This document shows positions 437-28,404 of a stretch of DNA of 32,000 bases, in pieces. The notes below the pieces were generated by a model. That model was given only the letters and a program-made list of their open reading frames with translations, had not been told where the DNA came from and did not search any database. Source of the stretch: Promethearchaeota archaeon (GTDB lineage: Archaea; Asgardarchaeota; Lokiarchaeia; Sigyniarchaeales; Promethearchaeaceae); assembly GCA_016933055.1 (NCBI GenBank), contig JAFGBS010000004.1, positions 240,001 through 272,000 on the forward strand. Direction: 5' to 3'. The position numbers and the translations under genes are program-made. Position 1 is the first letter of the stretch. Every line of letters begins with the position of its first letter.

Positions 437-1150
437 TTGATCCATTCTGTCTACGTCATCCATCAAGTTACTGGTATATGTGTCATCTATCGGAAATATG
501 GCACTATTGAGTTCAACGAAGATTTGATTGCGGGATTTCTCACTGCCTTGGGTGATTTCTCAAAAGAGGTTACTCGAGGAAAAGGTAATCTCAAAATCCT
601 TGATATGGTCGTTTATAACATTCATCTTGTGTTTAAAAATAGAATTTTGGTCGCAGCCGCCAGTGATAAGAAAGATTCAAAGGAAATTGCTCAAAATAAA
701 TTAGAGATTATTCTCAATCAATTTATTGATCGATATCTTCATATATTTGAAGATTGGAAGGGAGATGTTCGAATTTTTGAAGAATTCGACGAATACATCG
801 ATTATACACTCAGAAATGGGAAAGCTGCAGAAATACCGAGAACATTGCCATTATTACGCATATTCGATAAAGACTATAAAAAAGCACAAAAAGCTCTGAA
901 AAAAGGAGCTACATTAGGAGAAGATATACTTGAAGAAAGCGTATCAGTCGAATGGAAAAATAAAAGATTACCGGAACAAGTAATTAAACAAGGAATGTTA
1001 ACGGAAAATGAATATAAAATCGCTCATTTATGCGATGGATCTAAGGATATCAATGAAATTGCAGAAGAAATTGGAATCACCTTTGAATCAGCGCAATTAG
1101 TGATCGATAAACTTGATCGTTTAGATATGATTAAACTTGTTAGATTGTAA
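437..1150 (+). CDS. Longin-like domain protein with C-terminal winged HTH
   Basis: TTG start. N-terminal beta-beta-alpha pattern 'SVYVIHQVTGICVIYRKY...EDLIAGFLTALGDF' is typical of Asgard longin/sedlin-like domains. C-terminal 'LCDGSKDINEIAEEIGITFESAQLVIDKLDRLDMIK' is wHTH-like. Confidence 0.7.
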   Translation: MIHSVYVIHQVTGICVIYRKYGTIEFNEDLIAGFLTALGDFSKEVTRGKGNLKILDMVVYNIHLVFKNRILVAAASDKKDSKEIAQNKLEIILNQFIDRYLHIFEDWKGDVRIFEEFDEYIDYTLRNGKAAEIPRTLPLLRIFDKDYKKAQKALKKGATLGEDILEESVSVEWKNKRLPEQVIKQGMLTENEYKIAHLCDGSKDINEIAEEIGITFESAQLVIDKLDRLDMIKLVRL

Positions 1151-1195
1151 ATCTTCTTTCTCAATTTTTTAATTCAATAAAATCCATCCTTGTTT

Positions 1196-1633
1196 ATGCC
1201 TAACTTTTATGAATTCAAAGAACACCCCGCAGACATTCAAGTACATGCGGTGGGGAATACTTTAGAAGAAGCTATCGAGCAGGTAGTTATTGGAATGATG
1301 GATATAATGACTTCAGTAGAGACAGTCGATACTAAAATCTCAAAACAGATTAAGGCATCTGCCCCTGATCTTGAAATGTTAGTTGTGGATTATCTCACCG
1401 AATACTTGTTTTTTTTTGACACTGAACAATTACTGTTTTCGAAAGTTAAGGTATCACCTATTGAATTCGATGAACATACTCAAACATACCAACTTAATTC
1501 TGTTTCAAATGGAGAGTCTTTTGATTCGAGCCGCCATGAAATGAAAACAGAGATAAAAGCAGTAACCTACTCATTTCTCGAAATTCAACAAAAAAAAGAA
1601 AAATCTGAAATTTGGATTATATTTGATTTGTGA
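1196..1633 (+). CDS. Archease (RtcB cofactor)
   Basis: Motifs 'YEFKEHPADI', 'GNTLEEA' and 'TEIKAVTY', plus terminal 'IIFDL'. ATG at 1196 preferred over TTG at 1190. Confidence 0.93.
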   Translation: MPNFYEFKEHPADIQVHAVGNTLEEAIEQVVIGMMDIMTSVETVDTKISKQIKASAPDLEMLVVDYLTEYLFFFDTEQLLFSKVKVSPIEFDEHTQTYQLNSVSNGESFDSSRHEMKTEIKAVTYSFLEIQQKKEKSEIWIIFDL

Positions 1634-1639
1634 GGAACA

Positions 1640-2260
1640 TTATTCCATGGGTTTCGTAACAGCCTTTAAGTTTTCCCACATTGCATTTACTTCGTCGCGT
1701 TCTTTCTCAAGTTGTTCGCCCTTCTTTTGGAGATCCTTTTTCTTTCGATTGTATTCCCGTTCCAAATCTTTAAGTTTCATTTCCGTGGATGCAATTTTTT
1801 CTGCAGCAACCATTTTATTTTTTGCAGCTTCGATCTTTAAACCAGCATCTACTACTTTACGACGTATTTTGGCTATGTCTACCATGATATCTGCATATTC
1901 CATTCGTTTTTCTAATAACGACTTCTTTTGGATAGCTAAATCTTTCAACTTATCGTAATATTTTTCTTTTATATCAATTGCACTATCCAAATGACGGACA
2001 TATTCTTTGTTATCTTCGACTTCATCTTTGGAAATTCCAGAACGGTCTTCTCGGCTTAAAATCTCTAATTGTTTACTGAGATCTCGCAATTTTCTAACGA
2101 AAATCCCCATAAATCGTGTATAATCTCCATATTGATCCGCTAATTTTTTTTCTGCACTTGCAATTGATTTTTCACGATTACTCATTTGTTTCATCATATG
2201 AGCAATCTCAATTTCGAGTGCACTCAACATTTTCTCATCTTCATGAGTAACAATCGGCAT
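1640..2260 (-). CDS. All-helical coiled-coil protein, possibly BAR-like
   Basis: 206 aa, K/E-rich, almost no Pro or Gly, three long amphipathic segments. No recognisable catalytic motif. Confidence 0.6.
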   Translation of the reverse strand: MPIVTHEDEKMLSALEIEIAHMMKQMSNREKSIASAEKKLADQYGDYTRFMGIFVRKLRDLSKQLEILSREDRSGISKDEVEDNKEYVRHLDSAIDIKEKYYDKLKDLAIQKKSLLEKRMEYADIMVDIAKIRRKVVDAGLKIEAAKNKMVAAEKIASTEMKLKDLEREYNRKKKDLQKKGEQLEKERDEVNAMWENLKAVTKPME

Positions 2261-2384
2261 ACGGTTTTATCACATCTTTTATATTTTCATAAGGAAAAGA
2301 TCGGTATTATTTTTGTAATCTTTCACCTATACTTGATAACTATGACATAAAATAAAGTAATAAATACTTGTAAAAATTTTTGAG

Positions 2385-2780
2385 TTATTCACTAAGAGCT
2401 CTTCTCTTTTTGAATAACTCTTTCAATTCACCCATAATGGATGAACGCAAGGAAATTGGATTTGCGGGAGCTTGTGGTCGGGGGGCTGGGGCTCCTGGAG
2501 GTGGGGGGGGTGCTCCTGGTACTCCTGCTCCTCCAGATCTTGGAGCAGCCGTTCCCGGAGAGATGGTCGCACCCGAAGCGATTTGTGCTTCTAATGTAGC
2601 AACTTTGGATTGTAGATGATTTATCTGGGAGTTCATTTGAGAGATTATCGAATCCACTCTCTCAGGGATACTCATTATTACTATCATCATCTTCTCGATA
2701 ACTTCCGAAAGTCCCTCTACTTGTTCTCGAAGTGGAGCTTCTCTCATGGAGTTTAATACTGCGTTAAATTCATCTGCCAT
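2385..2780 (-). CDS. Small coiled-coil / polyproline / WH2-like motif protein
   Basis: ATG start. Heptad helix at residues about 17-68, GAPPPPPGAPAPRP at 89-102, C-terminal 'LRSSIMGELKELFKKRR'. Confidence 0.75.
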   Translation of the reverse strand: MADEFNAVLNSMREAPLREQVEGLSEVIEKMMIVIMSIPERVDSIISQMNSQINHLQSKVATLEAQIASGATISPGTAAPRSGGAGVPGAPPPPPGAPAPRPQAPANPISLRSSIMGELKELFKKRRALSE

Positions 2781-2919
2781 TTAAAAACATCCTGTATTGT
2801 TGTCGTTTTCCTTTTTTATATTATCCAAAATTAAATTATATCTAAACTATATGTATATTATATTGATTTATCTTTAATAAGTTAGCAAAGCCAAAGAAAC
2901 TAAAAAGGGGGTTATATCA

Positions 2920-3879
2920 ATTTTTTTATTCAAGATTTCCTTCATTTCTACAGATGTTCGGGATAAAATTTTATTCTTTGATCTAATACGTGCAAATCTG
3001 GAGTTATCTAATTTCAATAATACTTCCTACTCCGACACCATCGGAGTTAACATCTCGGTAAAACATCTCTACGATCAAAACGAACAGATTGCAAAGATCA
3101 TCATCTGGGATATATCACCTCAGAAATTCTTTCAGTGGGTTCGCCCATTATTCTTTAATGGCTCTATAGGGGCAATCGTTCTCCATTCAGATAATTCTGC
3201 TGAAGGGGTATCTCATACTGTAAAATTAATTCGGGAATTTCGAAAACATGCCTTTTTAAAATATCTGGTTATCCTCACAAAACCCTTCGAGATTGACATT
3301 CCTATTAAAGAATTGGTAGCAGAAGCACAGGATCTCGGATTCGAAATCAGGTACTTTGATATAGATGAATCTTATAACTCCGAAAATCTACCTTCTGAGC
3401 AAAATTGTGCGGAAATTTATCAAAATCTGAGGAAATTTTATGAAACTATTATCCTAGATCTATTCTCAGATGCAGTGAGTAAAATTCCTAAGAATGCCTA
3501 TAATATTACTGAATTTCGGGATATCTATTTCGACACTTTAGAAGAATATGATAATTCTTTAAAAAAAATGTATGAAATTTTAGATAGGTTAGGATTTGCT
3601 CATGATCATCGCAATATATATGTTGATATTGAAGAAGGCTTATTTTCTATTAATATTTTCACTGGTGCTTGCTATTTTCATTATCCGCATTCTTGTACTC
3701 AGCAGACAAAATATTTATGTTTGGAACCTGCAATTAAAGATTTTTCAGGATGGTCAAACATTATGTATTTACCGAAGACTTTTATGCTCTCGATCGCCAA
3801 AGCTTTCTATCTTCTTGAACACGATTTCGATAATATTGTGCTTGACCAATTGGAAGAAATAAAAAAGAAATTAATGTAA
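2920..3879 (+). CDS. Degenerate Rab/Ras-like small GTPase domain plus unknown C-terminal domain; non-canonical start (ATT 2920 or ATA 2914)
   Basis: The frame of ORF 3313..3879 is open back to 2881. The upstream part reads FLFKISFISTDVRDKILFFDLI...SYSDTIGVNISVKHLYDQNEQIAKIIIWDISPQKFFQWVRPLFFNGSIGAIVL, colinear with Rab FKI...TIGV...IWDTAGQ..F....YYRGA.G. A GGGGG SD-like run sits at 2907-2911. Confidence 0.75.
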   Translation: MFLFKISFISTDVRDKILFFDLIRANLELSNFNNTSYSDTIGVNISVKHLYDQNEQIAKIIIWDISPQKFFQWVRPLFFNGSIGAIVLHSDNSAEGVSHTVKLIREFRKHAFLKYLVILTKPFEIDIPIKELVAEAQDLGFEIRYFDIDESYNSENLPSEQNCAEIYQNLRKFYETIILDLFSDAVSKIPKNAYNITEFRDIYFDTLEEYDNSLKKMYEILDRLGFAHDHRNIYVDIEEGLFSINIFTGACYFHYPHSCTQQTKYLCLEPAIKDFSGWSNIMYLPKTFMLSIAKAFYLLEHDFDNIVLDQLEEIKKKLM

Positions 3880-5253
3880 TCTATCTATTAAATCAAGTAC
3901 TTTGGCTGCTTGATCCCGAATATGGGAAATGCTGTCTCCACTTGAAGAAAAAATTGATTTCGCAGTACCATGTATCGATGACAGAATAATCTTATTCGGA
4001 ATTGCCACAATTCCCATTAAAAGAAGAAAAACTTCTTGAATCAGCTGTGTTTTGACTCTTATTTGCTCTTGTTTCTCTTCCTCAGAGATTTTGCTTTTTT
4101 CATTTCCATCGCCGAAAATTCTATCAACTTCCATTTCTTCCCAAATATTTGATTTTAATCCATCAAAATTCACCCCTAAGTCTAATAGTGCTTTCTTAAT
4201 CCCTTCATAGAAAAGTTGAATCATTTCTTCTGGTGGAATTTCATTAAATTTGTCTAAAATCTCAGGCGGAGCTATATCAGTAAGTAATTCTATAATGGTA
4301 GCTTTGTAATCTTGCACAATATCTAGAGGAAGGGTTAATTCGGTCACTTTGATGGAATTATTATATAAATGTCCGATAAGTTTGGCAATAGCTTCCTTTT
4401 CACATGTTTTCTCAATTATTCTTCCGTTTTCGTTGAATATATGAACCAAGAGAAATCCTATGATTCTTATTACATCCTTTTCATAATTTTTGAAATATTC
4501 CATAAATTCATAAGAACTCATTTCCATTTTTTCTTCTATTACTATAACTAATTGCTTTTTGATTGCATCCAATGGTCTGGATAAAATATCATCAGCATTA
4601 TCGAAATCAGAATCCATAAGAAAAGGTCTTTTCAAAGCTGAATCTAGCTGCTGTATGTCTTGATTCAATTCTGACTTATGTACAATATGACATTTGAGTT
4701 CCAAAACATCATCTCCCCTACAAAAGCACTTCGTTTCTTGCATCAAAATTCGATAATCATTTTTTTTCAATTCCAAAATGAAATTAGCTGTTTCTTCAAG
4801 CATACCGACTAAACCAGTTGCATAAAAACTTTCTTCTGGTTGAATTTTATTACAATCAACAGAATCTAACGGAGAAGAACCATACCCTCCACATATAGGG
4901 CATTTAGAGATCCGAAAAATTAGATCGGGATATTTTTCTCCTTCTCGAGGGATTTTCTGTAATTCATATTCATCTAATTTGGTTCCAAAAATAACGAACC
5001 AGATTATATCCAATGTTTCCATTACCCTAACTGGATCATTAGGAAACATACGTAAGACAGTCATTTGTCGACGGGCAGATTCAAAAGTTCCATTTAATCC
5101 AATCATCTTTAATATCTGAGAGGCTTGTGTCTCGTTTCCCGTTACTTCTACGATTTCTTTATACATTTCTCGATACAGAAGCGTGAAAAATAATAAATTT
5201 ACACTGCGACCAAAGAATTTTGCAGTGCGCCCTACTAAAAATCGAAATACCAT
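3871..5253 (-). CDS. TRAPPC3/Bet3-V4R fold protein with long helical C-terminal extension
   Basis: 'LFFTLLYREMYKEI...ASQILKMIG...IIWFVIFG' resembles Bet3 (LFTLTYG..V.QL...V.K.L..MG). V4R-type 'CPICGG' and 'ETKCFCRGDD' are present. Confidence 0.7.
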   Translation of the reverse strand: MVFRFLVGRTAKFFGRSVNLLFFTLLYREMYKEIVEVTGNETQASQILKMIGLNGTFESARRQMTVLRMFPNDPVRVMETLDIIWFVIFGTKLDEYELQKIPREGEKYPDLIFRISKCPICGGYGSSPLDSVDCNKIQPEESFYATGLVGMLEETANFILELKKNDYRILMQETKCFCRGDDVLELKCHIVHKSELNQDIQQLDSALKRPFLMDSDFDNADDILSRPLDAIKKQLVIVIEEKMEMSSYEFMEYFKNYEKDVIRIIGFLLVHIFNENGRIIEKTCEKEAIAKLIGHLYNNSIKVTELTLPLDIVQDYKATIIELLTDIAPPEILDKFNEIPPEEMIQLFYEGIKKALLDLGVNFDGLKSNIWEEMEVDRIFGDGNEKSKISEEEKQEQIRVKTQLIQEVFLLLMGIVAIPNKIILSSIHGTAKSIFSSSGDSISHIRDQAAKVLDLIDRLH

Positions 5254-5257
5254 TGGT

Positions 5258-5734
5258 TTATTCCTCCCGTTCTTTAATTTGGTAGGTATGAATACAAGAA
5301 AGATCCCCCAAAGCTACTGATTTTATGACAGACGATCTCTCTATGTGATGTCCATATTTTTCACAGATTTTCGAAATCATAGACACAACAACCCAACAAG
5401 GTGAAATTGAAAGATCTTCACGCTTATATTTACATAAAGGGCATTTTTTATCTTCCACAATCACTTCATGAGATTCATTCTTGATGTCAATTTTGCTCTC
5501 AAAAATATTCGTGTAAATATTTTCTATCAACTCTTCAACAGAAGAACCAAAGAATTTTTTCTCTACTGCAATAGTTTCAGCAATATTTTTACCCATCCGT
5601 TGTAATTTCTGTTGGATATCCGAATCACCTATCCCTCTACTCATTAAAAACCGCAGGAAATGGTATAGATTATTTCTCATTTGATTCATAGTTGCTGTCT
5701 TACCAGCAAGCTCTATTCGTGTATAATTTGGCAT
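5258..5734 (-). CDS. TRAPPC3/Bet3-like (V4R fold) single-domain protein
   Basis: 'IQQKLQRMGKNIAETI' parallels Bet3 'QLDKMGFNIGVRL'. Cys residues in 'KCPLC', 'SPCW' and 'GDLSC'. 158 aa. Confidence 0.72.
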   Translation of the reverse strand: MPNYTRIELAGKTATMNQMRNNLYHFLRFLMSRGIGDSDIQQKLQRMGKNIAETIAVEKKFFGSSVEELIENIYTNIFESKIDIKNESHEVIVEDKKCPLCKYKREDLSISPCWVVVSMISKICEKYGHHIERSSVIKSVALGDLSCIHTYQIKEREE

Positions 5735-27557: not shown

Positions 27558-28295
27558 TTATAATGAGTTTAAAATTGGTATTATTTCATTGAAACTATCA
27601 ACATCATAATCGGGGTTCACAGACTGCAGTTCGCTGAGGTAGGAATCCTTATATGGATCGTATTTTCCTCCACGATGTACTAGAACAGTTTTCATACCAA
27701 TTTGCTGAGAAGGAATAATGTCGTGGTCCACTCTATCTCCAATATACATCGATTCGTTTGCCGGAATGTTTAGGTACTTCAAACAAAATCGATAGAATTC
27801 AGGATTGGGTTTTTTCCATCCCACTTCCTCAGAAATAAAACAATCAGAATAATAAGATAACAAATTTAATCGGATTAATTTCTCATATTGCTTAACTGCT
27901 ATTCCATCACTAATTAGAATTAGCACATAGCCAAGTTCCTTTAACTGATCTAAAATTTTAGGTACTTCAGGAAAGGGTCTAATTTCTTTGACCTTTACTT
28001 CATGATATCCAATTACACCCGCTGCAACATATTTTGGAATACTGAAATTTGTGGATTGTAATCCATATTCATCGGGACTTGCTTTCATGCGGATCAGCAA
28101 TTCATCATAATGTTTTGAGTAGTTGCTACCGAACTCATCCACGATACTGTGAAGTAATTTTATTCCCTTTTCATAATTAAATTGTAATCCCAGTTGTTGA
28201 ATTTTTTTCAACCCCCCTATTCTGGATTCTGTAGCTAGATTGGTGGCATTAAAAAGAGTATCATCTAAATCGAAACCAATTAAACGGATGGTCAT
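27558..28295 (-). CDS. HAD-superfamily hydrolase (archaeal subfamily IA)
   Basis: Motif I 'FDLDDTL', motif II 'ISDG', motif III 'KKP', motif IV 'IGDRVDHDI'. Confidence 0.92.
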   Translation of the reverse strand: MTIRLIGFDLDDTLFNATNLATESRIGGLKKIQQLGLQFNYEKGIKLLHSIVDEFGSNYSKHYDELLIRMKASPDEYGLQSTNFSIPKYVAAGVIGYHEVKVKEIRPFPEVPKILDQLKELGYVLILISDGIAVKQYEKLIRLNLLSYYSDCFISEEVGWKKPNPEFYRFCLKYLNIPANESMYIGDRVDHDIIPSQQIGMKTVLVHRGGKYDPYKDSYLSELQSVNPDYDVDSFNEIIPILNSL

Positions 28296-28404
28296 TTTAG
28301 TCTACCAAATAATTTTCTGATTGTGAGTTTATATACACGGAATTTCTCATATATTTTAGGTAAGCTCTCATATATCAAATCATAGGATTCATCACAGAAG
28401 TATC

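Follow-up and report, generated by a model that had tools for sequence, protein, structure and literature searches.

A probable AUU-initiated Rab-like pseudo-GTPase with a cysteine-bearing C-terminal domain in Asgard archaea

Introduction

Pseudo-GTPases are known mainly as eukaryotic scaffolds. CENP-M and dynein LIC, for example, are class i pseudoGTPases. AAGAB/Irc6p belongs to the same class, which is defined by a measured lack of both nucleotide binding and hydrolysis, and AAGAB is an adaptor (PMC12490416); the pG1 and pG2 domains of p190RhoGAP are further members (PMC5593906). Here we describe a gene at positions 2920 to 3879 of a 32,000-nucleotide stretch of DNA (the window) from a Promethearchaeota archaeon (assembly GCA_016933055.1, contig JAFGBS010000004.1, positions 240,001 to 272,000), which fairly probably encodes an AUU-initiated, low-copy, nucleotide-free Rab mimic that would dock constitutively on a GTPase partner and deliver a cysteine-bearing domain. 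The closest known systems are the Rab small GTPases (Rab22A, Rab11/Ypt32, Rab23; Asgard Thor-Rab, PDB 7EZB; Tran et al. 2024, PMC10933270), from which the gene differs by the family-wide loss of G1, the G3 glycine, G4 and G5, by a fused C-terminal domain and by the lack of a C-terminal CAAX/CC motif.

The gene combines a GTPase fold, loss of conserved G motifs and an intact, selected coding sequence, which are the sequence features of a class i pseudoGTPase. However, the described members of that class are eukaryotic and biochemically nucleotide-free, and no sequence link to them was found; because they score below ordinary Rabs, no special kinship to them is shown. Furthermore, the partner of AAGAB docks outside the switch regions, while in the present protein it is the switch face that is conserved.

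The start of the gene also has precedents. E. coli infC starts at AUU (reviewed in PMC4705826), Ribo-seq of Haloferax shows near-cognate initiation sites (PMC7261190), and a rare ATT start has been inferred for Asgard (Kariarchaeaceae) atubA (10.64898/2026.02.15.705738), which shares the ATT behind a Shine-Dalgarno motif and for which the inference was drawn because the fold needs its first strand. As in infC, a conserved near-cognate start behind a Shine-Dalgarno motif is found here; unlike infC, the product is no initiation factor and no feedback loop on this gene is evident. What distinguishes the present case from all three is that the position is backed by 13 loci with five different triplets, GTT among them.

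Results

A coding frame that precedes its first canonical start codon

The frame is open from 2881 to 3879 of the forward strand (332 codons), directly behind tandem TAA TAA, and its first in-frame ATG, GTG or TTG is TTG 3313, as had been noted in a reading of the DNA letters without database searches (hereafter the sequence-only reading). All genome-wide scans were based on the host assembly of 3.76 Mb, which is 91% complete. The orthologous locus of a sister genome matches the Promethearchaeota MAG AMARA_1 without difference, in keeping with a Lokiarchaeial Asgard host. By coding score ahead of the first canonical start, the 144 skipped codons rank 5th of 3105 coding-like open reading frames (ORFs), and they match Pfam Roc/Ras above cut-offs (E 1e-6, 2e-5) as well as Rab22A in the PDB (E 9e-8). 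The host genome contains 54 Ras-family matches. A canonical start skips more than half of the Rab-fold domain, yet this part is under purifying selection.

Gene calls on other assemblies begin at TTG 3313, those of orthologues begin at an internal ATG, and at least 12 of the 27 close homologues have records that begin too late. The NCBI protein from the source contig (P0279) is 321 amino acids (aa) long and starts at ATA 2914. The claim that the N-terminal part had been missed is thus true of the other-assembly calls and not of the NCBI record. The 27 homologues share 45-74% identity across almost the entire length.

2920..3879, + strand: predicted coding sequence of 319 aa, Rab-fold pseudo-GTPase plus C-terminal domain (27 close homologues; AF2 pLDDT 81)

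A degenerate Rab-like domain with a conserved switch face

2923..3498, + strand: Rab/Ras-fold domain, residues 15-206 of the open frame
2947..2970, + strand: degenerate G1 (P-loop), both glycines lost and DK where GK is expected; least conserved region (51%)
3034..3162, + strand: switch I, interswitch and switch II, with DISP for DxxG at G3; 87-91% column conservation
3274..3285, + strand: degenerate G4 position, TKPF; 53% conservation

The AF2 model contains the six-stranded, five-helix G-domain fold, and the motifs of a Rab small GTPase were absent at G1, G3 (DxxG), G4 ([NT]KxD) and G5. The motifs quoted in the sequence-only reading were all found (P-loop position 2947-2970, switch I 3034-3048, G3 3103-3123, switch II 3142-3162, G4 position 3274-3285), and its description of a destroyed P-loop with degenerate G3 and G4 was confirmed here and in the close homologues, none of which has GxxxxGK[ST] (27 homologues, 25 in the alignment). 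The G2 threonine/RabF1 is present (TIGV, 3037-3048), and IGV is invariant within the clade. Conservation in the clade reaches 87-91% over helix 1, switch I, interswitch and switch II, versus 51-69% in G1, G3, G4 and G5. The conserved switch face is the surface bound by Rab effectors and regulators. From this pattern we consider it likely that the protein binds no nucleotide, and we lean towards an adaptor or decoy role. A Roco protein was rejected as a candidate: the Pfam Roc match spans only residues 47-124, and no COR domain was found in the protein or in 20 C-terminal domains of about 125 aa each.

The degeneration extends beyond the clade. A profile of the C-terminal domain detected relatives in 146 of the 400 Asgard genomes; in most cases a degenerate G-domain precedes the domain. 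Family members come from Promethearchaeota, Helarchaeota, Thorarchaeota and Freyarchaeum deiterrae (source names) and are nearly all recorded as hypothetical proteins; the named matches, from index-limited searches, are all archaeal. Among 189 full-length members, two keep G1, two others keep the G3 glycine and none keeps both, NKxD is present in the aligned G4 column of 0 of 56 representatives, and each clade carries its own replacement loop. The only members with a full P-loop, P0068 and P0280 of Helarchaeota, still lack the G3 glycine and G4. A family tree, built by a quick method, leaves its base unresolved, such that P-loop loss once or many times both fit and the intact Helarchaeota P-loops may be ancestral or swapped in. 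The domain is patchily distributed: a search of 12 other genomes from the host's own family (three of them single-contig) did not find it. The C-terminal domain also occurs without a G-domain in loci L100, L102 and L196 (frames of 206-232 aa), some members have other fusions, and up to six copies per genome are present in one family of the class (L186-L191). A full-text search of incomplete coverage found no paper joining pseudoGTPase or pseudo-GTPase with Asgard, and within that coverage this widespread Asgard family is apparently undescribed.

We also considered an atypical nucleotide-binding protein with a rewired pocket, either a class ii pseudoGTPase or a binder of another phosphorylated ligand. 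Most of the clade keeps the G1 lysine and the G3 aspartate, replacement loops are conserved inside clades, and two Helarchaeota members have a full P-loop, all of which would be in keeping with such a pocket. However, the domain has lost G4, the G3 glycine, the Mg-binding Ser/Thr and both glycines of the P-loop, the G loops are the least conserved parts, and the replacement loops are wholly different from clade to clade, which makes this explanation unlikely.

A C-terminal domain with one invariant cysteine

3499..3876, + strand: C-terminal domain of no known family, with a long helix, a four-stranded sheet and two helices (AF2 pLDDT 88)
3718..3720, + strand: invariant cysteine C280, followed by conserved GW[ST]N at 3748-3759 (204 family sequences)

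C280 is present in 100% of the 204 family sequences and is their only invariant residue; in GW[ST]N, the glycine is conserved at 99% and the tryptophan at 98%. The sequence-only reading had proposed an unknown domain of about 130 aa with two cysteines; no known family was matched, but the domain has three cysteines here (C264, C272 and C280), of which only C280 is invariant. Four other cysteines of the family (84-86%), which probably form a zinc site, are all absent in this clade. Searches by Foldseek, VIA-align, Pfam, PDB sequence and ESM Atlas features gave no usable match, from which neither absence of relatives nor a new fold follows.

The best, though weak, structural neighbours are UBC/E2 and RWD folds, which share a helix, a four-stranded meander, a cysteine followed by a tryptophan, and two helices. 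This resemblance raises the alternative that the protein works through its C-terminal domain, which would be a thiol enzyme (a far-diverged E2/UBC-like one or another kind) whose active site is C280 and which the dead Rab domain targets. In line with it, C280 alone is invariant and persists in proteins that lack the four other cysteines, most of the top structural-search rows are UBC/RWD folds (with scores that are not significant), and the best HHalign segment aligns C280 with the catalytic cysteine of Lokiarchaeial E2s. However, HHalign against 30 Lokiarchaeial E2s gave 0.65% and E 0.088, which is not above shuffled controls, neither an HPN motif nor a PF00179 match was found in the domain, no sequence, profile or structure score was significant, and distant family members have a four-cysteine insert that is absent from E2s. 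Identity as an E2 was rejected on the HHalign score, an E2-like domain is a weak lead, and a thiol enzyme as the working end is improbable.

The start codon is very probably ATT 2920

2907..2914, + strand: Shine-Dalgarno motif, pairing with the host's own 16S 3' end
2920..2922, + strand: probable start codon ATT (aligned codons in 13 loci; synonymous bias from the next codon on)
2914..2916, + strand: ATA, start of the NCBI record, disfavoured; overlaps the Shine-Dalgarno motif, and the aligned codon is TAG in L052 and TAA in L046
2983..2985, + strand: CTA in helix 1, an internal ATG in all 12 other loci; not a start, with no Shine-Dalgarno motif in any locus
3313..3315, + strand: TTG, first canonical codon; false start with no Shine-Dalgarno motif (-0.1 kcal/mol)

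The N-terminal part is almost certainly translated, and initiation exactly at ATT 2920, giving 319 aa, is very probable. To place the start, we compared the DNA of 13 distinct orthologous loci. At the position of ATT 2920, four loci have ATT, five TTG, two GTT, one ATC and one ATG, and the variation is confined to start-like triplets; outgroup loci carry ATG or TTG. Among nine close loci, codons +1 to +8 after 2920 show 135 synonymous versus 14 non-synonymous pairwise differences, nearly all at third positions, and codons -5 to -1 show 25 versus 96 without position bias, although these pairwise counts are not independent observations and the thresholds were chosen by us. Pairing of the Shine-Dalgarno motif amounts to -10.3 kcal/mol, which is stronger than for 97% of ATG genes, and the spacing to ATT 2920 of 5 nt falls in the genome-wide peak of 4-7 nt. 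GGGG(G) or GGAG lies 8-10 nt ahead of the start-aligned codon in 13 of 13 loci. Locus L052 has TAG two codons upstream and then no canonical codon for 18 codons, so that the only start candidates between the TAG and strand 1 are CCG and GTT; according to the AF2 model, the fold requires strand 1, from residue 15 of the open frame. The earlier suggestion of an AUU start 8 nt behind the GGGGG at 2907-2911 is borne out by the codon alignment, the Shine-Dalgarno motif and the coding constraint, and the orthologue comparison that had been proposed as a check gave mostly non-ATG starts (ATT, ATC or GTT in 7 of 13).

The same protein could instead be initiated at AUA 2914 to give 321 aa, as in the NCBI protein. 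ATA is the commonest near-cognate candidate in the genome (8 of 22), and loci L031 and L050 have TTG at the aligned position. However, AUA 2914 overlaps the Shine-Dalgarno motif, with a pairing energy of only -5.0 left upstream, L052 and L046 have a stop at the aligned position where others have ACA, CTA, TTA or GTA, and codons -2 and -1 are without coding constraint, which leaves this start with little probability.

Other candidates were rejected. For the internal ATG at residue 35 as the family start, pairing is -3.8 or nearer 0 in every locus (most about 0), the 20 preceding codons are constrained, and the codon is CTA here. A start at TTG 3313 would remove five of the six G-domain strands. 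An alternative genetic code or a frameshift is unneeded, because the frame is already open.

2873..2879, + strand: TATA-box-like TTTAATA, invariant in 9 of 9 close orthologues
2840..2857, no strand assigned: conserved AT-rich intergenic element with invariant columns in nine orthologous intergenic regions, probably the promoter of the divergent gene or an upstream element of this gene

The word TTTAATA peaks 27-32 nt ahead of ATG starts genome-wide; from the copy here, transcription is predicted to begin near 2900, which would make the leader about 19 nt long. A sigma-70 promoter scan, whose model is not suited to archaea, was at chance level.

The gene is intact and selected

Against seven close orthologues, the proportion of non-synonymous differences (pN) is 0.15-0.19 and that of synonymous differences (pS) is saturated at about 0.8, with an equal contrast in all three segments compared (first 20 codons, skipped part, remainder). 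By these comparisons the gene is intact and selected, and neither a miscall nor a pseudogene. The sequence-only reading had allowed for decay next to orthologues with intact P-loops; no orthologue has one, and the gene is unbroken and under purifying selection. Although ATT is one base away from ATG, a miscalled ATG or a decaying pseudogene is refuted for the clade and has a negligible chance of being correct, with ATT, ATC or GTT in six other loci from unrelated samples, identical gene spacing in a separate assembly that is likewise called from TTG 3313, no stops or frameshifts, pN far under pS in every segment and a dead P-loop common to orthologues.

Near-cognate starts elsewhere in the genome

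In skipped coding stretches of 19 ORFs, 22 of 52 in-frame codons behind a strong Shine-Dalgarno motif are ATT, ATC, ATA, ACG or CTG versus 6.8 expected, a count whose members are not independent, whose thresholds we chose and whose stricter test was devised after a weaker one. That earlier, looser enrichment was weak (ATT 18 versus 10.2, p 0.014 uncorrected). The odd start seems to be a minor habit of the genome, shared by about 19 genes, aIF1 included. Three further probable near-cognate starts, at C6:275198- (CTG), C28:96669- (ATA/ATC) and C2:173475- (ATT), are kept in the sister species and are ATG in other genera where comparable, which suggests a genus-level habit. Other probable cases behind strong Shine-Dalgarno motifs are C17:640331+ (CTG), C15:6288- (ATA/ATT), C15:150616- (ATA) and C17:370470- (ACG). 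A Rag-like GTPase with an intact P-loop (C11:27566-28531, + strand; L055) has no canonical start for 99 codons, with ACG 8 nt behind a Shine-Dalgarno motif and ATG or TTG in orthologues of other genera.

The aIF1 gene itself (C6, about 28130-28460; L054) has no ATG, GTG or TTG between an in-frame TGA and the zinc knuckle; its ATA aligns with ATG or TTG of relatives, and the sister species has the same arrangement. Among the loci compared (L220-L253), aIF1 lacks a canonical codon in 11 further Asgard loci; eight loci of another family have ATT, a Thorarchaeote has CTG and one more locus has ATA. By analogy, the gene is a candidate for infC-like autoregulation. In Sulfolobus, aIF1 rejects AUU in vitro (PMC4705826; PMC6237735), so genes with near-cognate starts could respond to the aIF1 level. 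Such a response is possible, and plain tolerance behind a strong Shine-Dalgarno motif fits the data equally well; the simplest view is that this lineage accepts near-cognate starts when they follow a strong Shine-Dalgarno motif, and with them the weak start of this gene.

Gene neighbourhood

2385..2780, - strand: divergent neighbour of 131 aa, with coiled coil, polyproline and a short C-terminal helix; adjoins in all clade loci with enough flank, outgroup subclade included
3871..5253, - strand: convergent neighbour of 460 aa with no Pfam match, 9-nt overlap; adjoins only in the near subclade
5258-5734: weak Thor-TRAPPC3 match (PDB 7yh3, E 0.0035), beyond the 460-aa gene

The gene lies in a cluster at 437-5734 of the window that consists of a longin-like plus helix-turn-helix gene (437-1150), archease, a 206-aa coiled coil, the coiled-coil/polyproline gene, the pseudo-GTPase gene and two convergent genes. 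The left part of the cluster is conserved to the outgroup subclade, and the 131-aa gene is not beside distant family members. In 30 loci of the largest clade (among L090-L101, L133-L162 and L194), the gene adjoins a Rag/Arf-like GTPase gene whose P-loop is intact, and two other conserved genes adjoin in 38 loci. The neighbours are different in distant clades, one of which has a Rag-like GTPase there. In MK-D1, small GTPases are generally not in operons with their regulators (PMC10933270).

Discussion

We propose that the 30S subunit is positioned on AUU 2920 by the Shine-Dalgarno motif of a short leader, a motif of unusual strength, that initiator tRNA pairs with this codon despite a third-position mismatch, and that a 319-aa protein is made, probably at a low level. 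The protein is most likely nucleotide-free and non-switching because residues for binding phosphate, Mg2+ and guanine are missing, and it is most likely a Rab-mimic adaptor because the switch face read by Rab partners is kept. Through the retained switch I, interswitch and switch II face, it would dock constitutively on a GTPase partner, which may be an effector or a longin/TRAPPC3-type regulator, and the docked adaptor would deliver the C-terminal domain with its one invariant cysteine.

Several observations weigh against this proposal, in addition to the dependence and chosen thresholds of the counts given above. The G1 lysine is kept in most of the clade, which leaves room for residual phosphate binding. 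The orthologue protein P0005 has Phe at the 2920 position and a predicted start two codons earlier. Loci L049 and L050 carry ATG or TTG close to the predicted transcription start, six codons ahead of the start-aligned position, and in L031 and L050 a TTG lies two codons ahead of it, so starts may differ between species. The TAA of L046 comes from an assembly with frameshifts. Finally, no partner can be named, because neighbours differ between clades and MK-D1 small GTPases generally do not lie in regulator operons.

A bolder version of the proposal is very unlikely. In it, the dead Rab-like domain of this Asgard-wide family would bring a thiol-active domain, far-diverged and E2-like, to GTPase partners, and output in the genus would be tuned by aIF1 through the near-cognate start; if true, Rab-type and ubiquitin-type machinery would have been linked before eukaryotes.

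The family gives the result most of its weight, and the start codon by itself is a modest point with precedent. Standard gene calling shortens genuine genes in Asgard genomes, and counts of Asgard 'Rab GTPases' include dead ones. The family offers a concrete soluble target for structure and binding work. Its occurrence in Loki-, Hel-, Thor- and Freyarchaeum genomes points to an early origin for the conversion of a Rab-like switch into a fixed adaptor, an option that the archaeal ancestor of eukaryotes would already have had.
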